In this document: positions 3,499 through 50,243 of the stretch, in pieces
Layout: every line of letters starts with the position of its first letter
Position numbering within the stretch: the first letter of the stretch is position 1
NCBI GenBank assembly: GCA_028712365.1
Contig: JAQTQE010000002.1
Span: 22,366-86,365, forward strand
Reading direction: 5' to 3'
Source: a bacterium
GTDB lineage: Bacteria > CAYTYR01 > UBA6262
Length of the DNA stretch: 64,000 nt
Made by a program: the position numbers and the translations under genes
Notes under the pieces: model-generated
Seen by the model: only the letters and a program-made list of their open reading frames with translations
Databases searched by the model: none
Told to the model about the DNA's origin: nothing

Positions 3499-3875
3499 GT
3501 TTTCCTCAACTTCCGCCACCAAATGAATAGAGCTATGGCCAAGGTGGCTCCGACAGAGTCGCTGATCACGTCACTAATACTCGGGCTACGGGTAGGTTCA
3601 AAAAACTGTACCAATTCATTGGCCAGGCCCCAAATCACTGAATAAATGAAAGACACTATTCCTATGGAAACTATACTATATTTCCAGAATCTAAAGGCCA
3701 GGCAAAGAAGAGCAGCCAGGATGAAATATACTGCGGCATGGGCCAGGCTGGCCAAGAAGTCAAAAGGCAGGAATATTTCCACTTCCGCGGCAGGTTGTAA
3801 AGAAAGAAACAGCAGGAAAAGCGACCAGGTCATGGCCAGTATCAGATATCGTTTGGCGCGTTTAGTATAGGTCAT
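3495..3875 (-). CDS. VanZ-family membrane protein
   Basis: AHAAVYFIL, NELVQFFEPTRSPSISDVISDSVG. Confidence 0.8.
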   Translation of the reverse strand: MTYTKRAKRYLILAMTWSLFLLFLSLQPAAEVEIFLPFDFLASLAHAAVYFILAALLCLAFRFWKYSIVSIGIVSFIYSVIWGLANELVQFFEPTRSPSISDVISDSVGATLAIALFIWWRKLRKT

Positions 3876-3877
3876 AA

Positions 3878-4696
3878 TTAAAGGTCTAATAAAGTACTGG
3901 CATTGAGGGAGACGATCTTTTGCCGATCAGAATCGTCAGTGATCAGAGTTCCTAATTTAGCCAGCTCTTGTTTTTGGTCCTGCCAAGGGGAATCTGTACC
4001 GAATAAAATAAGGTCTGGATCGTGCCGCTCGACCAGTTGGCGAAAAGCATGGCTGGACATATAGTTCATAGCGAAAGAAGTGTCAATATAAACATCTTTG
4101 CCGATAATCTCTTCAAGCACTTCATCCCACATCTGGAATCCGCCCATATGCGCCAGCACCAGCTTCAGGTTAGGGAAAGCCTTGATCAGCCTGGCAAAAT
4201 GGGCCGGGGTACCGTGAACATTTTCAAAAGCAATATCCCTGCCGGCATGGAAAAACGCGATGAGCCTGGCTTTAGCCAATTCTTCATAGAGCGGGAACAT
4301 AGCCGCATCATCAGGAAAAAAATCCTGGTACTCAGGATGGAATTTCACTCCCTTGATACCGCCGGCTTTCAGCCGGGCGATCTCCTTTTGGTAATGGGGA
4401 TATTTCGGATGCAAGGCCCCGAAAGACATGATCCTCTGGTCTGTGATCTTAAGGGCATAGGAATTGATGCTTTCTACCTGGTCGGCCCGCGTAGCTACAG
4501 GGACCTGGATGCTAACCTGCACGCCGGAACGTTGCATGGAATCAAGCAGTCCCTGCCTGGTACCGTTGGTGAAAGCTTTACAGTCTGCTTCCGCTTCCAA
4601 AGCCGCAATGATCCTGGCCGCGCCATGATCGGGAAAAATATGAGTATGAATATCGACAATAGGATCTACTGTGGTATGAAGCTTGGATGTCATCAT
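3878..4696 (-). CDS. Amidohydrolase_2 family TIM-barrel metallohydrolase
   Basis: VDIHTH, GVKFHP, FHAG, LVLAHMGG, YIDTS, ILFGTDSPW. Confidence 0.9.
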   Translation of the reverse strand: MMTSKLHTTVDPIVDIHTHIFPDHGAARIIAALEAEADCKAFTNGTRQGLLDSMQRSGVQVSIQVPVATRADQVESINSYALKITDQRIMSFGALHPKYPHYQKEIARLKAGGIKGVKFHPEYQDFFPDDAAMFPLYEELAKARLIAFFHAGRDIAFENVHGTPAHFARLIKAFPNLKLVLAHMGGFQMWDEVLEEIIGKDVYIDTSFAMNYMSSHAFRQLVERHDPDLILFGTDSPWQDQKQELAKLGTLITDDSDRQKIVSLNASTLLDL

Positions 4697-5832
4697 CTTT
4701 TTTCCAGAGTAATGAAGGTAATTTCAGGAGGAGCCCCTACTCTTATTGGCGGCCCCCAGGTACCGGTACCACGGTTGACATAGACAGTAGTGTCACCGGA
4801 ACGGAATAAACCATAAGGCATAGCGTAGATCTTTTTAACAATATAGCGAAAAGGCCATAACTGGCCCTGGTGAGTATGTCCGCTTAACTGTAAATTTATA
4901 CCCAGGCGTTGCAATTCTGCCATGGTGGTCCCGGGGGTATGATAGAGTAATATTATTGGTTTCTTTGGATCAATGCCTTTCATTATCTCGGCCAGCGAGG
5001 GTATTTTCTCTCCTCCTACCCGCGTACCTGTAGGATCATCACGACCTACTATTTGTAATCCGCCGGCTACTTCTATCCAGCGGTTACGCAGCAAGCTCAC
5101 TCCGCCTCTTTCGATAAAAGCTTCAGCTTTTTCAATCCCGGCAAAATATTCATGGTTACCGGTGCAGGCAAAAACACCATATTTGCTTTTGAACCTTTGC
5201 AGGGGCTCTACCAGTTCTTCCATATGCAGGGCTTGTTCATCTACCAGGTCCCCGGTAATGACGATCAAATCAGGATTAAGATCATTCGTAAGAGTGACAA
5301 TTTTCTCCAGCCTTTTCCCCTGGATGATCAATCCCATATGTACATCGGAGATCTGGGCAATGGTAATTCTTTCCAGTTTTTCCGGTAGGTTGGGTATTTT
5401 TACGTTTAACCTGGTGATGCCAATATTAGTCGCTTCTGATAAACCATAGATGGTGACGGATAAAGCAATGGTTAATACCAGGTAAGTGAAAAGACGCGGG
5501 TTTTGCAGGATGTTATTCCCAGTAAGTTTTAGTACCAGCTTGAGCAGGTCTAATCCGATGGTCGCCAGGAACAAGTACACGATCATGCCCATCCAGACAG
5601 AAGAAATATAGTTGATGATCTCGACTATCAGGCCGTTTTGTCCCCTGGCGACAAAATGCAGCAAAGGGAAAGAAAGGCCTAAGGCGATGAATAATATCTT
5701 GATCAAGATAGAAGTAAAACCAGCCAACCGGAGGGGGTATATCAGCCGGATATAAAGATATAAGTGACTACCGCCATAAACAATGATAAAAATTGTTAAG
5801 AAACTCATAAAAAGCCAAAAGTATTGCCGCAT
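4693..5832 (-). CDS. Membrane-anchored metallophosphoesterase (YkuE-like)
   Basis: N-terminal TMs; SDVHMG, TGDLVD, TGNHE, LYH, SGHTHQGQ. Confidence 0.9.
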   Translation of the reverse strand: MRQYFWLFMSFLTIFIIVYGGSHLYLYIRLIYPLRLAGFTSILIKILFIALGLSFPLLHFVARGQNGLIVEIINYISSVWMGMIVYLFLATIGLDLLKLVLKLTGNNILQNPRLFTYLVLTIALSVTIYGLSEATNIGITRLNVKIPNLPEKLERITIAQISDVHMGLIIQGKRLEKIVTLTNDLNPDLIVITGDLVDEQALHMEELVEPLQRFKSKYGVFACTGNHEYFAGIEKAEAFIERGGVSLLRNRWIEVAGGLQIVGRDDPTGTRVGGEKIPSLAEIMKGIDPKKPIILLYHTPGTTMAELQRLGINLQLSGHTHQGQLWPFRYIVKKIYAMPYGLFRSGDTTVYVNRGTGTWGPPIRVGAPPEITFITLEKR

Positions 5833-5876
5833 GTAAACCTCGCAAAAACAATGTCAAAAAAGAAGTAAGGTGTTAC

Positions 5877-6494
5877 CTACCTCTTCATTACGAAAGGTTT
5901 AATTTTATAATATACGCGCTGGGCGATAATAGCGTACCCGGAAGCATTCGGGTGTATTTCATCGCTTTTTTTCGCGGGATCAGTAAATATGTCTTTAATG
6001 ATATTGGGAATATAGATACATCTCCTGTTATTGCTTACCTGTTCAAAAATATCATCATATTCATCGACTAATAAACCAATACGCACTCCGGCGACCGCGA
6101 CCATAGCCCCTCTTTCCTGGATTCGCCGGACTATCAGGTCCAGGTTGTCTTTGGTTTCGCTTTTAGGTATTTTCCGGAAAAAATCATTGGCGCCGAATTG
6201 TACGATAACGAGCTTAGGGTCCTTGTCCAGGACATCGGTTTGTAAACGCTCCAGCGCCTGGCGGGTAGTGTTGCCGCTGACGCCGGCGTTTATGATTGGC
6301 TGGTCTAAAAGTCTTGCGAGTACTGTAGGGTAATCTTCACCTGGTTTGGCACCATAGCCTTCAGTCAGGCTATCTCCGAAGCAGATAATGTTTCTACCTG
6401 TCGTGCCTGTATTGGCTACTTGCGGCTTACAAGCTACCGTGGGCATGATCATGGTCAGTAATAATAAATTAGTAGTTAGTTTGCACCAGGACAA
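5877..6494 (-). CDS. SGNH/GDSL arylesterase (TesA-like), probable lipoprotein
   Basis: FGDSLT, NAGVSG, GAND, DEIHPN blocks; signal peptide ending VAC. Confidence 0.85.
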   Translation of the reverse strand: MSWCKLTTNLLLLTMIMPTVACKPQVANTGTTGRNIICFGDSLTEGYGAKPGEDYPTVLARLLDQPIINAGVSGNTTRQALERLQTDVLDKDPKLVIVQFGANDFFRKIPKSETKDNLDLIVRRIQERGAMVAVAGVRIGLLVDEYDDIFEQVSNNRRCIYIPNIIKDIFTDPAKKSDEIHPNASGYAIIAQRVYYKIKPFVMKR

Positions 6495-7902
6495 AGGTCT
6501 TCTTGCCCTTCTTTACCGCGATATTGGTTATTTGTTCTTCTGCTGCCTTGCCACCGTTGCGGTTGTAATAATTAACCTTGAGATCATGCGTTCCTGCCGG
6601 TACGGTAAACCTGGCCATCCTGATAGTATCAGGCAGTACCTGCCAGCAGCGCTTATCTGCTTTCTCAGTCATAGCAGACGCTACTTTTACCGTGCTGGAT
6701 AATAAGAAAGTACTAATGGCATTGTCAGATTTTTGTTCTATTTTTTTGATCGCGGCCCTGGATAAGGCGTACTTTACCGCGGCGCGGGCAAAAGTCTTGG
6801 CATAGATGCGGCCAATCCGGTCATTCAGGCTTTTGACCGCGATCTTGCCGATATCTTCCACTACTTCGGTCGGCTTGCTTTTGTCGCCCAGTTCGATAAT
6901 ACTGGAAGTAATATTGTAATTAGTAGGTACATATTGCGGGAAGGCAGCGACGATTTGCTGGTCAGCGGCGATGGACCGGATAGCTGTTCCGGCGGTAGAG
7001 ACACTTTCCGCCGCTTCTCCTTCAGTTTTGACCGCTTTGACGAAGATCCAAGCCTTACTAAAGGCAATTTCCAGGATGTTGTCTATTTTATGCGGGACCA
7101 GCCCATTGTAGTGTATTACTATTATTTCACCGCTGTTCTTATCGGCTTTGGGCTGGTCATAACTGTCCGCCAGTTTAGGAAAATCCTGGCGCAGTTCATC
7201 CATCTCCGCATTGAACTGCAGCCTGGCGGCAGTCACCATGGCGCTGTTGAATAGTTCCTGCGGTATTTCCACCCCCATGGATTTTTGGAGGTCACGGTAG
7301 GTGTATAATGCTTTGCGGTACGAGATGAAGGCATCATTGGTCTCGCCTTCATTTTCGTACATTAAACCCATAAGATAACGTACAAAGCCGTCTTCCTTAT
7401 AGCTATTTTTATAGCCATAATTGGTTTGCAGGAGTTTGAGGTAATCATCGACTGCCCTGGCTTCGACCAGGGCATCTTCACCTTTATTGAGGAAAACATA
7501 ATTGAGCGCGGAGAACACATGAGCCATGGCAGGTTCAAAATCTTCTCCGTAATATGGCCGCATATTATCACTGATCAAAAAGGTAGAGGCTTCCTTGGTG
7601 ATGCTTTTGGTGAAATAGTCTTTAGCCAGTTTCCTGGCTTCATAAAGCATAATGTTGGATTTGGAATAATCTGCTCCAATATGGAACAGATATCCCTGGT
7701 CCAAGTAATACAACAGCAGGTCGTTTTCGCCGTAAAATTTATCAGCGTTATCTTCGACCTGTTTGTAGGCTTCTGTGTAGTTTTTCCGGGCCACATAGTC
7801 ATTAAGGGTATCATAATATGTCAGCCGATTGGCTCCGCACCCGGATAAGAATATACCAGAAAGCAGACTTAAGACAATAAGGAACCTTCTTGTTATATGC
7901 AT
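6469..7902 (-). CDS. COG3014-like lipoprotein
   Basis: Lipobox LSGC; helical TPR-like N-half, YYGEDFE, ADKRCWQVLP; adjacent to lpoB as commonly seen for this family. Confidence 0.7.
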   Translation of the reverse strand: MHITRRFLIVLSLLSGIFLSGCGANRLTYYDTLNDYVARKNYTEAYKQVEDNADKFYGENDLLLYYLDQGYLFHIGADYSKSNIMLYEARKLAKDYFTKSITKEASTFLISDNMRPYYGEDFEPAMAHVFSALNYVFLNKGEDALVEARAVDDYLKLLQTNYGYKNSYKEDGFVRYLMGLMYENEGETNDAFISYRKALYTYRDLQKSMGVEIPQELFNSAMVTAARLQFNAEMDELRQDFPKLADSYDQPKADKNSGEIIVIHYNGLVPHKIDNILEIAFSKAWIFVKAVKTEGEAAESVSTAGTAIRSIAADQQIVAAFPQYVPTNYNITSSIIELGDKSKPTEVVEDIGKIAVKSLNDRIGRIYAKTFARAAVKYALSRAAIKKIEQKSDNAISTFLLSSTVKVASAMTEKADKRCWQVLPDTIRMARFTVPAGTHDLKVNYYNRNGGKAAEEQITNIAVKKGKKTFVLVQTNY

Positions 7903-7937
7903 ATCTCTCTCTTTGCTCTAATCTGTGAAATCCTATG

Positions 7938-8549
7938 TTAGAATTTCGCTTTTGGCCTGGTGACCAGTTTCTTGATCTTTTTCTGGCCGATCCAGACTTT
8001 TTCGTTAGTGAGAATATTGATCATTTCCAGCTCAATCTGGTAATACTTGACTGCCTGTTTGCCAGCTTCATCCATGATAGTGTTGATCTGTCCCTGCAGC
8101 ATGAAATCAGCGCCCTTTTCCTTGCCCATAGCCTTGATAGTGGCTGGATCGGAAAAATTGGCTTGATCGTTCTTTTCATCGCGCACTTCGCCGCGCTGTT
8201 CCCTGGAAGCGACAAATTTTACTTTTCCGGAATTGATGAGCTCACGTTCGAGGTCCTTAACAAAAGTCTCAGTGTTGATATGCTCGCTGGAACGGTTCCT
8301 GACCGTGCCCACGATCACTGTCGGCGATTTGCCCTTTTCAGAGCGGAAATCTCCTACCCAGGGCCGGCCTAGTGAATCAGTGATCATCTCCGCTGACACT
8401 AGCTGGGAATCAGTATCATTCCAGTTACCGCTCAAGTCGATCATTTCGCCGGAGTCGACTCTCTGTACTTTTACTCCGCCGCAACCTGTTAAGAGAACTA
8501 CTGACATAGCGATGATCATGAGTGTTGCCAGATTCAATTTATTCTTCAT
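7938..8549 (-). CDS. lpoB: Penicillin-binding protein activator LpoB-like lipoprotein
   Basis: Lipobox LTGC, DLSGNWNDTDSQLV, VRNRSSEHI, GADFMLQGQI. Start at MKNKL with SD AGGAGG; the longer ORF to 8627 merely reads through a repeat. Confidence 0.8.
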   Translation of the reverse strand: MKNKLNLATLMIIAMSVVLLTGCGGVKVQRVDSGEMIDLSGNWNDTDSQLVSAEMITDSLGRPWVGDFRSEKGKSPTVIVGTVRNRSSEHINTETFVKDLERELINSGKVKFVASREQRGEVRDEKNDQANFSDPATIKAMGKEKGADFMLQGQINTIMDEAGKQAVKYYQIELEMINILTNEKVWIGQKKIKKLVTRPKAKF

Positions 8550-46405: not shown

Positions 46406-47341
46406 TCATTGTTGCTGCTTCAGATTTTGCAGCCTTTGCCGCGATTTATCTTCTTCCAGATGTTTTATATTCTCAACCGCCTGGGAAACCTGGGCCGCGA
46501 TACCAGACAGCATATTTACCTGATCCGTGCTAAAAGCGTTAACCTTGCTTTTATTGATCAGAATAATGAACCCGAGGATAATATCCCTATTGATCAACGG
46601 CGAAGCAATAAGAGAAGTTCCATACAAAGGCGAGTTTGAGTTTAACTTGAATCGATCATCAGTGGCCAACTCTTTAACCAGCAAATGTTCCTTATGCTCC
46701 AGCAGGTATTTAAAAAGAGGATCCCTGCTATCCAGGAACAACCGGTCCACTTCTTCCTGCGGCAAATTAATCTGGGATTGGACCTCATACTCCCTGATGA
46801 ATTCATTCCAGACCACCACCAAGCCTGCTTCAGCAGAATCTGTCGCTTCCATCAATTTATGCAGTACCATCATGCAAGTTTTCTTCAAATCGTATAAAGA
46901 AGCGACTATTTTACCAGTTTCATAGACTGTCACTAATTCATGGTCGGTTTGCCGTAGCCGTTGCACCAGTGTTTCCAGCAGCCTGAAAATGAAGACTTGG
47001 GCAGCTTGCAAATTATTATTAAGCAATTCCTGGAAACTATTACGGGAAAGCACGTAGACTATCACTTCGCCTTTGGCTACAGCCGAAGCTGAACGGGGAC
47101 CCTGATCGATCAAAGACATCTCACCGAAAAAGTCGCCGGACTGCAGGATAGCCAGGACTTTCAACTTGCTGATCGTTACTTCACCCTGCTTAATGACATA
47201 AAAAGTATCGCCAGCCTGGCCCTCGCTGAAGATCACTGCTCCGTCATTATAGTGTTTTTCCTCTATCTTGACGGCAATAGCGGTAAGGATGTCTGCGGGT
47301 AAGTCACTGAATAGAGGCAAATATCTTAAATCAGGCAACAT
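46406..47341 (-). CDS. cNMP-binding + GAF domain protein without output domain
   Basis: IFSEGQAGD, GDFFGEMSL, PRSASAVA; then SLIASPLI...LGFIIL...FSTDQVNML...AVEN. Confidence 0.85.
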   Translation of the reverse strand: MLPDLRYLPLFSDLPADILTAIAVKIEEKHYNDGAVIFSEGQAGDTFYVIKQGEVTISKLKVLAILQSGDFFGEMSLIDQGPRSASAVAKGEVIVYVLSRNSFQELLNNNLQAAQVFIFRLLETLVQRLRQTDHELVTVYETGKIVASLYDLKKTCMMVLHKLMEATDSAEAGLVVVWNEFIREYEVQSQINLPQEEVDRLFLDSRDPLFKYLLEHKEHLLVKELATDDRFKLNSNSPLYGTSLIASPLINRDIILGFIILINKSKVNAFSTDQVNMLSGIAAQVSQAVENIKHLEEDKSRQRLQNLKQQQ

Positions 47342-47344
47342 GAA

Positions 47345-48412
47345 TTATACTCCTGACATTCCTACATAGCTTTTGAGTTGTTCGGCATTATGGGCTTTGC
47401 TGACTGCTTCTTCCAAAGAAATCATGCCTTCTTTTATCAAATGATGAAGAGCCCGGTCCATACTGACCATTCCCAGTTTGGTTCCGGTTTCAATAGCATT
47501 ATAGATCAAATGGGTTTTACCTTCACGGATGAGATTGGAAATAGCCGGGACATTGAACATTAATTCCCTGGCGGCGACCCTGCCTTTGCCGTCTTTACGC
47601 GGTAATAATTGTTGTGAAATAACCGCGCGCAGGGCTACGGACAATTGCATTCTAACCTGCTGTTGCTGATGTGGCGGGAAAACATCAATGATGCGATCAA
47701 CGGTTTGGGCCGCATCGTTGGTATGTAAAGTGGCAAATACCAAGTGCCCTGTTTCTGCGATTGTAATGGCCGCGGAAATAGTTTCCAGGTCGCGCATTTC
47801 ACCGATGAGCACTACATCCGGATCCTGGCGCAGTATATGCCGCAGAGATTCGGCAATAGAATGAGTATGCGTTCCCACTTCTCTTTGGGTAACGACACAA
47901 TTACCGCTTTCGTAGACATATTCTATCGGATCTTCGATAGTGATAATGTGGCCTTTTCTCTCGCGGTTGATCATTCCTAATAAAGAAGCTAAAGTTGTTG
48001 ATTTACCGCTGCCGGTAGCGCCGGTTACCAGGACCAGGCCGGAATTAAGCTTGGTTAGATCGGTGATGTTCTGTGGCAGCCTGAGATCTACCGGATCGGG
48101 AATGGTAGCGGGAATGATCCTTAAAACCGCTCCCAGACCGTCCTTTTGGCGCAATAAATTCACCCGGAACCGGCTGATCTGTTGCAGCTGGAAAGAAGTG
48201 TCAAGCTCCCATTTTTGCTCGAAGAGAACCTGCTGTTCATTGCCTAGCAAAGCGTAAATCATTGTCTTAATATCAATACTGCTGAGCGCCGGTAAATTAA
48301 GAGGCAGCATTTCCCCGTTGATGCGATTCATTGGCGGCTTGCCCGGGGTTAAGTGGATGTCACTGGCGTTTTTTGCCACGCTGGTTTTTAAGATTTCAAA
48401 AATATCAGCCAT
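47345..48412 (-). CDS. pilT: Type IV pilus retraction ATPase
   Basis: ASDIHL, GATGSGKSTT, TIEDPIE, LRQDPD, GEMRD, ETGHLVFATLHT, AIRNLIRE-like AISNLIRE. Confidence 0.93.
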   Translation of the reverse strand: MADIFEILKTSVAKNASDIHLTPGKPPMNRINGEMLPLNLPALSSIDIKTMIYALLGNEQQVLFEQKWELDTSFQLQQISRFRVNLLRQKDGLGAVLRIIPATIPDPVDLRLPQNITDLTKLNSGLVLVTGATGSGKSTTLASLLGMINRERKGHIITIEDPIEYVYESGNCVVTQREVGTHTHSIAESLRHILRQDPDVVLIGEMRDLETISAAITIAETGHLVFATLHTNDAAQTVDRIIDVFPPHQQQQVRMQLSVALRAVISQQLLPRKDGKGRVAARELMFNVPAISNLIREGKTHLIYNAIETGTKLGMVSMDRALHHLIKEGMISLEEAVSKAHNAEQLKSYVGMSGV

Positions 48413-48430
48413 GTTATCTCCTTCGGAGTA

Positions 48431-48500
48431 AATCCTAATTTCTAAACTCTAAATACTAAACCATGAAAATTCGAATTTAGATCTTAGAATTTCGAGTTTG
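48431..48500. repeat. 7-nt periodic inverted junction element
   Basis: AATCCTA ATTTCTA AACTCTA AATACTA AAC ... TTCGAAT TTAGATC TTAGAAT TTCGAGT TTG. Confidence 0.8.
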
Positions 48501-48505
48501 TTTTA

Positions 48506-48850
48506 TCAACCGGGGGGCCATTGCAGTTTCCTGCCCCCTAACATGTGCAGATGGATGTGACTGACTGCCTGACCGGCATCTGCTCCGTTATTAATGACCA
48601 GCCGGAAACCGCTTTTCTCGATCTTGTATTCCTTAGCCAGTTTTTTGGCGATCAGGTGGAGATAACCCATGATCTCACAGTCCTGGCCGGATAAATCACT
48701 AATGGAAGAAATATGCTTTTTCGGGATAATTAAAATATGAACCGGCGCTTGCGGCCCGATATCGTGAAACGCTAAAACTTTATCGTCTTCATAGGCGATT
48801 TTTGCCGGGATCTTCTTAGCGACTATTTTACAAAATAAACAATTAGTCAT
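48506..48850 (-). CDS. Histidine triad nucleotide-binding protein (HinT-like)
   Basis: CLFCKI, HDIGPQAPVHILIIPK, HIHLHMLGG; start MTNCL with SD AAGGAG. Confidence 0.95.
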   Translation of the reverse strand: MTNCLFCKIVAKKIPAKIAYEDDKVLAFHDIGPQAPVHILIIPKKHISSISDLSGQDCEIMGYLHLIAKKLAKEYKIEKSGFRLVINNGADAGQAVSHIHLHMLGGRKLQWPPG

Positions 48851-48863
48851 ATTTTTCTCCTTC

Positions 48864-48898
48864 AACCCGCAACTCGAAGCTCGCTAACTCGTAACTGT
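48864..48898. repeat. Solo heptamer arm
   Basis: AACCCGC AACTCGA AGCTCGC T AACTCGT AACTG between a stop codon and an SD. Confidence 0.6.
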
Positions 48899-48900
48899 GT

Positions 48901-49590
48901 TTACACGTTAAACTTAATTTCAATAATATCGCCATCCCGGGTCAGGTATTCCTTTCCCACTGTTTTAAGAAATCCTTTGGTCTTGGCTTCCTGCAAGTTA
49001 TGACATTGCATCAGGTCGTCATAACTGACGATATCGGCCCGGATGAAACCGCGAGCCAGGTCAGTATGTATCTCGCCGGCGCACTCTACGATCGTACTGC
49101 CTTCAGGGAAAGGCCAGGCATGGACTTCCTTTTTGCCAACAGTGTAGAAAAAGAGAACTCTGGCTTTATGCAAGACCTGCTGGATATATAAATTAGTATC
49201 CTCCAGCTTGGACGCTACATAGGTGGGTTTCCAACTAAGCGGAGCCAAGCCGCGCATAATAACGGTTTCTTCCGCGTCAAAAGGGACATTGCATAAAGGC
49301 TGTTCCAGTTCCAGGGCTTCCTGACATTTCAGGAGCAAAGCTTTTTCTTTCGGATCCTGGGTTTTAGCCAGGCGGCCTTCTATCTTTTCTATGTCTTGGA
49401 TAAGCAGGTCCAGCAGCTTTTCATATTTGATCAGGATAGCGTCAACATTAAGCATCTCATCTTTGACAAACTCGGCAAAGAACGGTGTTTCTTTTTGCGG
49501 CTCGAATTTATCCACCATTTTCTTGAACCGTTCATCTTCGTACTTTATTTTTCCTTCCTTTAAATCAAACCCAACAAAGCCGATCTTCAC
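48901..49590 (-). CDS. YchF/DUF933-like protein lacking NTPase motifs
   Basis: YchF C-terminus FYTVGKKEVHAW...AGEIHTDLARGFIRA...GKEYLTRDGDII; N-terminus lacks GxxxxGKS and DxxG; GTG start. Confidence 0.8.
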   Translation of the reverse strand: MKIGFVGFDLKEGKIKYEDERFKKMVDKFEPQKETPFFAEFVKDEMLNVDAILIKYEKLLDLLIQDIEKIEGRLAKTQDPKEKALLLKCQEALELEQPLCNVPFDAEETVIMRGLAPLSWKPTYVASKLEDTNLYIQQVLHKARVLFFYTVGKKEVHAWPFPEGSTIVECAGEIHTDLARGFIRADIVSYDDLMQCHNLQEAKTKGFLKTVGKEYLTRDGDIIEIKFNV

Positions 49591-49609
49591 TTATACCTCC
49601 TAATAGAAT

Positions 49610-49725
49610 ATGTCTATGGTTACAGGTTGTGGACGCCAGTATGGTCATTTGGCTATAGTCTTAGGTCCAAACCAAGTACCTTAGACATACTTCCATACCT
49701 ACTTCTAAAACCTACACCTTACTTC
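49610..49725. repeat. GAAGTARG-unit junction element
   Basis: CATACTTC CATA CCTACTTC TAAAA CCTACA CCTTACTTC; related to 41893-42010; overlaps the DUF4416 stop. Confidence 0.7.
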
Positions 49726-50243
49726 AATTGCTGTTGGTAAAGTTTCCTGATGTGATTGAAAATATTAATATATTCCTGCGTGGCATAGTCTGGATAAGTC
49801 CATTCCCAGGGAGTAAAGGAACCATTAGTATACCGCAGGGTCACTTCTCCGAAAATTCCCTGGCCCAGGTACAAGCGATGCTGGTGATCTTTAGTAGTGG
49901 CCAGCACTAGTTTGCCATATTCCAGGTATCCTGGATCAAGGTTGATGGCACGGTGTTGCCGGTTTTGGCTTAATATAAATTCCAGTTTATTGGTCTGTCG
50001 TTTGATCAGGATCAGTTTGTCCGGCAAGATCAGCCGCTTAAACGAAATAAACCGGCGTTGCAGGTTCCGGCCCATCTCTTTTTCATAATAGGATGTTTTA
50101 TCAAAGGGAACTATATCGCTGGTAAAGTCAGCCGGACCGTATATTTTTACCAGGTGCAGCGCAGCCTTTCCAAAAAGCGCAGGATCCCCGGCGATCATCC
50201 CGATAATCAATTTTACTTTTTCTACTTTCCTGATCGCTCCCAT
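49719..50243 (-). CDS. DUF4416 family protein
   Basis: YYEKEMG, IKRQTNKLE, NLDPGYL, LATTKD..HRLYL, WTYPDY. Confidence 0.85.
   Translation of the reverse strand: MGAIRKVEKVKLIIGMIAGDPALFGKAALHLVKIYGPADFTSDIVPFDKTSYYEKEMGRNLQRRFISFKRLILPDKLILIKRQTNKLEFILSQNRQHRAINLDPGYLEYGKLVLATTKDHQHRLYLGQGIFGEVTLRYTNGSFTPWEWTYPDYATQEYINIFNHIRKLYQQQLK

Follow-up and report, generated by a model that had tools for sequence, protein, structure and literature searches.

A P-loop-less 229-residue derivative of YchF found in many bacterial phyla

The window analysed here, a stretch of 64,000 nucleotides of bacterial DNA, encodes a protein of 229 residues that has kept the three domains of YchF and lost all of its nucleotide-binding loops. 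The short family to which it belongs is almost certainly a pseudo-ATPase family derived from YchF. The protein is best read as a nucleotide-independent, ribosome-associated YchF derivative, that is, a pseudo-ATPase that would dock via its helical hairpin and/or its TGS domain, and this reading is given a probability of roughly 0.6. We infer the ribosome binding, its site and its regulation by analogy.

YchF/OLA1 is one of the few NTPases that are treated as universally conserved. Its function is debated, and stress response, leaderless mRNA and the splitting of ribosomes on D/E-rich mRNA have all been discussed. The short family can be regarded as a natural deletion experiment on YchF, in which the nucleotide machinery is gone while the hairpin and the TGS domain are kept under strong selection. 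It marks those parts of YchF whose function can stand alone, and in some lineages no other YchF-like protein is left.

The gene and the parts of YchF that it retains

An intact open reading frame of 229 codons had been described by the first-pass annotation at 48901–49590, and it is indeed intact, beginning with GTG and preceded by a ribosome-binding sequence. The annotation did not give the strand, which is minus. The features of the locus are as follows.

48901–49590, minus strand: coding sequence of the 229-residue P-loop-less YchF derivative (GTG start at 49588–49590, stop at 48901–48903)
49596–49601, minus strand: Shine-Dalgarno sequence AGGAGG, 5 nt before the GTG, read from the sequence
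49426–49590, minus strand: residues 1–55, the G-domain remnant (strands 1, 3 and 4, together with the hairpin and helix peculiar to YchF)
49237–49425, minus strand: residues 56–118, the helical (coiled-coil) domain with its shortened hairpin
49159–49236, minus strand: residues 119–144, strand 5 (KPT...) and a degenerate G4, joined without a break to the last helix of the G domain
48904–49158, minus strand: residues 145–229, the YchF-type TGS domain (PF06071)
49719–50243, minus strand: DUF4416 protein, the upstream neighbour, in an order kept in congeners
48506–48865, minus strand: HIT-family (HinT-like) protein, the downstream neighbour, 35 nt away, in an order kept in the genus and its sister genus

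The order DUF4416, short YchF, HIT and PilT is conserved in the window's own genus, and no terminator-like site was found between the short YchF and HIT genes.

The loss of the nucleotide-binding machinery becomes evident when eight short forms are aligned, with MAFFT, to seven YchF proteins of full length: the short proteins show five clean, in-frame internal deletions. The first removes 27 residues just after strand 1 (MKIGFVG), and with them the P-loop GxxxxGK[ST], helix 1 and the start of switch I. The second takes away 19 residues comprising DxxG, switch II and helix 2. The third (15+7 residues) follows strand 4, and the fourth (5+6 residues) lies at the tip of the helical hairpin. Further, 58 residues are missing after strand 5, with which strand 6, G5, two helices and the remainder of G4 are lost. 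The YchF-type G4 motif (N/T)(M/L/V)xE is not present, as the window protein reads SKLED against NVxE at a column that is variable in the family. Similarly, the Walker A motif was found in none of the 167 short-form sequences checked. A YchF homologue stripped of its NTPase motifs, from G1 to G4, was what the first-pass annotation had proposed, and the alignment bears this out, with G1, G2 and G3 deleted and the Asn of G4 lost. The sequence of the short YchF rules it out as a P-loop ATPase. A split gene was also considered and ruled out from the same alignment, since the deletions are internal, in frame and spread over five sites.

The profile searches are in line with these deletions. Against the whole-protein YchF equivalog TIGR00092, the window protein scores 115.6 bits, below the cut-off of 279.2, and only its C-terminal part is matched. 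The Pfam family PF06071 (YchF-GTPase_C/DUF933), on the other hand, is matched at residues 147–228 with 107.5 bits against a cut-off of 27 (E 3.9e-31; profile positions 3–84 of 84), and a C-terminal TGS domain of the YchF type is thus present. The only other Pfam match is a weak one to TGS. A sequence search of solved structures gave the same picture, with residues 145–229 matching the TGS domain of E. coli YchF (residues 295–379 of chain 8kie_y) and, more weakly, residues 77–140 matching the second helix of the hairpin together with the 'LKPT' strand of that chain.

The fold was predicted with AlphaFold2, with an alignment of 37 sequences as input, at a pLDDT of 95.1 and a pTM of 0.88. Without exception, the best 14 Foldseek matches of this model are structures of YchF/OLA1 (query TM-scores 0.67–0.81). 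With VIA-align, all 229 residues could be aligned to H. influenzae YchF (1jal_A; Z 20.6, rmsd 2.4 Å) as well as to the ribosome-bound E. coli YchF (8kie_y; Z 19.4, rmsd 2.8 Å, 32% identity). In the model, every part of the short YchF is also a part of YchF: of the G-domain sheet a stub remains (strands 1, 3, 4 and 5, along with the last helix and the hairpin and helix peculiar to YchF), and the helical hairpin and the TGS domain are retained. The helical domain is inserted in the G domain, and the model helices at 56–76 and 80–94 align to the YchF hairpin. The statement of the first-pass annotation that the coiled coil and the TGS domain are well conserved thus needs to be qualified in one respect: both are kept, and the hairpin is about 11 residues shorter.

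Within this framework, a distinct pattern of conservation is observed. G13, K14, K16 and D19 are invariant in the G-domain remnant, while the TGS domain is the best conserved part, with FFYT, HAW, CAGKIHTDLARGFI and RFNV. The hairpin carries a net charge of about -6 and a conserved basic tip (R73, K/R76, K83 and K88), and the family as a whole is acidic, with a pI of about 5.0. Three cysteines, C89, C100 and C170, are 97.5–100% conserved; C89 and C100 are near-invariant and C170 is invariant. Of the three, C100 and C170 are peculiar to the short family. C100 sits where the 'PLR' motif of YchF has its arginine, and C170 where the TGS helix has an alanine. A redox or metal role for the three cysteines is possible.

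When compared with YchF/OLA1, the Obg-family TRAFAC P-loop ATPase represented by TIGR00092 and by PDB entries 1jal, 2dby, 2ohf and 8kie, the short form has the same three domains with their secondary-structure elements in the same order, a Z of about 20 and an identity of 29–32% over the positions that align. Common to both are the PF06071 TGS domain with IHTD..GF, the KPT strand and a hairpin that is acidic, with a basic tip and with EKC...PL at its base. It differs in being without the P-loop, switch I, DxxG/switch II, the G4 Asn and G5, in its length (about 135 residues shorter), in new invariant residues (K14, K16, C100 and C170), and in a score that is far below the equivalog cut-off.

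A family of fixed length and its descent

The short-YchF family is defined here by a length of 224–235 residues, a full-length profile match, the invariant G13/K14/K16/D19, the cysteines C89/C100/C170, the motif IHTDLARGF and the absence of a P-loop, and the window protein shows every one of these features. A homology search returned 1307 matches, the best 120 of which are all 224–230 residues long with 51–91% identity, and more than 120 cluster representatives fall in this length range; their source names are mostly 'DUF933 domain-containing protein', 'ribosome-binding ATPase' and 'hypothetical protein'. In the alignment of 37 sequences, the mean column identity is 70% and 36 columns are invariant. 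In an exhaustive profile search of 1.84 billion representatives, clusters (at 50% identity) with the length of the short form number about 32 before the first full-length proteins come up. Matches of 240–330 residues were considered as a possible second reduced family and were rejected, as most of them are full-length proteins cut at the N-terminus that retain the strand 6/G5 segment.

A scan of species genomes found the 229-residue form in at least 15 phyla. The carriers include Thermodesulfobacteriota (Desulfobaccales and Syntrophobacterales), Elusimicrobiota, Omnitrophota, Lentisphaerota (Victivallis), Kiritimatiellota, Planctomycetota (Scalindua among them), SAR324, Acidobacteriota, Marinimicrobia, Fibrobacterota, Calditrichota, Hydrogenedentota, Latescibacterota, Krumholzibacteriota, Poribacteria and others. 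Desulfobacca acetoxidans (P0061) is a cultured carrier and Victivallis vadensis is probably a second one, which makes the ribosome hypothesis directly testable. In the literature that could be searched, no paper describing the short family was found, the mentions of DUF933 being general domain surveys. Surveys that score 'YchF present' from a DUF933 match conflate the ATPase with the pseudo-ATPase.

The first-pass annotation had named a recent decaying fragment with no intact homologues, or an assembly artefact, as what would speak against it, and had pointed to homologues of similar length, to dN/dS and to a full ychF elsewhere in the genome as worth checking. The homologues form a large family whose length is fixed at 229 residues across phyla, and pairwise dN/dS among six congeners is 0.03–0.08, with dS near saturation in several pairs; both argue against a decaying pseudogene, and so does the strong Shine-Dalgarno sequence before the start. 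An artefact is contradicted by independent contigs that agree without indels: one from a different study (run X3) spans 48700–49659 with four differences and no gaps, and one from a more distant strain spans the whole reading frame with 102 substitutions and no gaps. Neither objection therefore holds. Apart from the missing motifs, nothing speaks for a decaying fragment, a gene split in two or an error of assembly, and the probability of any of these is negligible.

In the genome of the window (1.87 Mb, 98.9% complete), the short form is the sole YchF-like protein; a YchF of full length is absent, and the other P-loop matches are Obg and unrelated GTPases. Its small phylum, represented by nine species genomes, is divided along family lines: all seven genomes of the window's family have the short form only, and both genomes of the sister family have canonical YchF only. 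In the window's genome and family, the short form has taken the place of canonical YchF. Elsewhere the two are found together. A YchF above the cut-off also occurs in 9 of 41 carrier genomes, for 35 of which there is no completeness figure. Among 81 sampled Elusimicrobiota, canonical YchF is present in 75 and the short form in 8, and seven of these eight carriers also have a full-length copy. As the short form may coexist with YchF or occur alone, depending on the genome, it is to be seen as a distinct paralogue; and where it coexists with the full protein, its job need not be the same as that of YchF.

It was also observed that seven Elusimicrobiota genomes (G048, G085, G088, G091, G094, G097 and G100) encode a shortened YchF of about 330 residues that scores above the cut-off, five of them (G048, G088, G094, G097 and G100) together with the 229-residue form.

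The origin of the family was examined in a tree of 47 short, 8 canonical and 21 divergent full-length proteins over 230 shared columns, obtained by a quick IQ-TREE search with SH-aLRT values as the only support. The short forms make up one clade with a support of 94, which rises to 99 without the longest branch (L071). This clade is nested among divergent YchF-like proteins of full length that stem from Planctomycetota, Chloroflexota, Synergistota and Entotheonella, and canonical YchF forms a separate clade with a support of 98. The nearest relatives in the tree are these divergent proteins of about 330–365 residues (L072–L092, L101 and L102), which share with the short form the TGS signature IHTDLARGFIRA / IRF(N/S)V and the EKC motif. 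Unlike the short form, they have the full G-domain length and mostly a GxxxSGK[ST]T P-loop. In some of them the P-loop is eroding and its lysine is lost, as in GLPGSGVTT of L101 (K to V) and GLPGSGQTT of L074 (K to Q). Degenerate P-loops were seen in L101 (from genome G030), L074, L072 and L075, GLPNSSKTT being one of them, and genomes G030 and G019 have only such copies, which score below the cut-off, and no canonical YchF.

The divergent proteins with degenerate P-loops may be intermediates towards the short form. The likeliest history, as far as the sequences tell, is that the constraint on nucleotide binding was relaxed in a YchF paralogue, that a single reduction to 229 residues followed, and that the short form then spread. 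The phyla are intermixed within the short clade, which suggests horizontal transfer of the short form. The extent of the family over many phyla, its probable descent from a divergent YchF paralogue and its coexistence with full YchF all go beyond what had been noticed in the first-pass annotation.

A putative role at the ribosome

In E. coli, YchF binds to the 50S subunit by docking its acidic hairpin on the basic proteins uL14 and bL19, with a lysine tip on H62, and the hairpin is essential for its function (PMC11814078). The ATPase activity probably serves the release from the 50S and not the binding or splitting (PMC11814078), which makes a nucleotide-free binder mechanistically plausible. 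With its net charge of about -6 and its basic tip, the hairpin of the short YchF matches the 50S-binding pattern of the E. coli protein (PMC11814078). Several features speak against carrying the E. coli model over directly. The tip lysines K149, K152 and K156, which touch H62 in E. coli, have no clear counterparts in the shorter hairpin; the positions matching the contacts E166, N174 and L181 are variable in the short family; and the helix after strand 5, which makes additional 50S contacts, falls in a deleted segment. A complex prediction of the short protein with the genome's own uL14 and bL19 scored 0.00, a value that counts neither for nor against binding.

The genomic neighbours give a further indication. 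Among the loci compared, no neighbour is conserved across phyla, and the neighbours are specific to clades. The gene immediately upstream on the same strand encodes a translation factor in 10 of 47 loci: EF-G in five (Planctomycetia/Omnitrophota), EttA, the translational throttle of the ABC-F proteins, in four, and TypA/BipA in one. In most cases this gene overlaps the start of the short YchF or lies within about 35 nt of it. The tree puts these loci in separate clades, and the short-YchF gene has therefore become associated with NTPases that bind the ribosome at least three times independently. In two loci from Fibrobacterota, the short YchF is followed by TsaD.

The retained helical and TGS domains, the E. 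coli-like charge of the hairpin and the translation-factor neighbours in three separate clades are the reasons to propose a role at the ribosome. The first-pass annotation had suggested a pseudo-ATPase acting as an adaptor that binds the ribosome or RNA. Its pseudo-ATPase half now stands on the alignment, the fold, the size of the family and purifying selection, while the ribosome or RNA half we infer. That the protein is a pseudo-ATPase derived from YchF is well supported by sequence comparison. A ribosome- or RNA-binding factor that works without nucleotide is the best-supported mechanism, and a somewhat probable one. In such a mechanism, the acidic hairpin with its basic tip would dock on the ribosome, at the site used by E. 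coli YchF (uL14, bL19 and H62 of the 50S), and/or the TGS domain would do so. The protein would then act, with no need of an ATP cycle, at the subunit interface or on stalled ribosomes, and its binding and release would be governed by something else, possibly its abundance, partner factors or the three conserved cysteines. A bolder version, which is tentative and rather doubtful, would make it an autonomous large-subunit or stalled-ribosome factor that replaces the ATPase in whole lineages and is switched on and off by the redox state of its three cysteines instead of by nucleotide.

The same neighbours can be read differently. The short YchF could be an adaptor or regulator acting in trans on another translational NTPase (an EF-G paralogue, EttA or TypA) or on full-length YchF, either as a hairpin-TGS module or as a competitor for the site. 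Close upstream genes for EF-G, EttA or TypA and the coexistence with full-length YchF in some genomes would fit. Nevertheless, the partner differs by clade and is absent from most loci, including the window, where DUF4416 and HIT are the neighbours; in addition, a search did not find the N-terminal 140 residues in any fused or longer protein, which is weak evidence. We consider such an adaptor quite improbable.

An action away from the ribosome has also to be weighed, in which the cleft between TGS and hairpin would bind a tRNA end, RNA or a ligand, with the cysteines as a redox switch. The strong conservation of the TGS domain and of the cysteines, two of which are peculiar to the short family, could point to such a sensor; after YchF/OLA1, the structures that match next are the TGS domains of RelA/SpoT and Rbg1, and NCBIfam names YchF a 'redox-regulated ATPase'. 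However, the known TGS partners, RelA and Rbg1, are themselves ribosome-bound (PMC11814078), and the whole protein is acidic. A ribosome-independent sensor or RNA/tRNA binder is thus held to be unlikely, and the ribosome-associated pseudo-ATPase is preferred. At 229 residues and with a confident model, the protein is small and suited to ribosome-binding and structural work.

The preferred reading has partial parallels among known systems. PseudoGTPases, a concept from eukaryotes, are proteins such as CENP-M that have lost nucleotide binding. The short YchF is likewise a scaffold derived from a G domain that is under selection without the functions of G1–G5. It differs from them in being bacterial, in having most of the G domain deleted and not mutated, and in preserving its accessory domains. 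A functional analogy is conceivable with RsfS and eIF6, the nucleotide-independent anti-association factors of the uL14 face, near the site of E. coli YchF (PMC11814078); their folds are unrelated to that of the short YchF. The genome also encodes RsfS, and the short YchF is therefore no substitute for a missing RsfS.

Additional observations on the loci

In Planctomycetia and Omnitrophota, the order EF-G, short YchF and PurH (AICARFT/IMPCHase) is conserved (L052, L061, L063, L066 and L071; about 3800–8200). In L052 and L063, no intergenic gap separates EF-G from the short YchF: the reading frame of EF-G ends on the base with which the YchF start begins, an arrangement that points to coupled translation.

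Downstream of the gene in the window, positions 46406–48865 on the minus strand encode the HIT-family protein, a PilT-type ATPase and a cyclic-nucleotide-binding/GAF protein, and the order of HIT and PilT is kept in congeners. On the other side, at 49662–49735, between the stop of DUF4416 and the start of the short YchF, the summed contig depth in four metagenome runs is 50–200 against 4–30 in the flanks, and many loose ends are found. This segment is a multi-copy repeat element.
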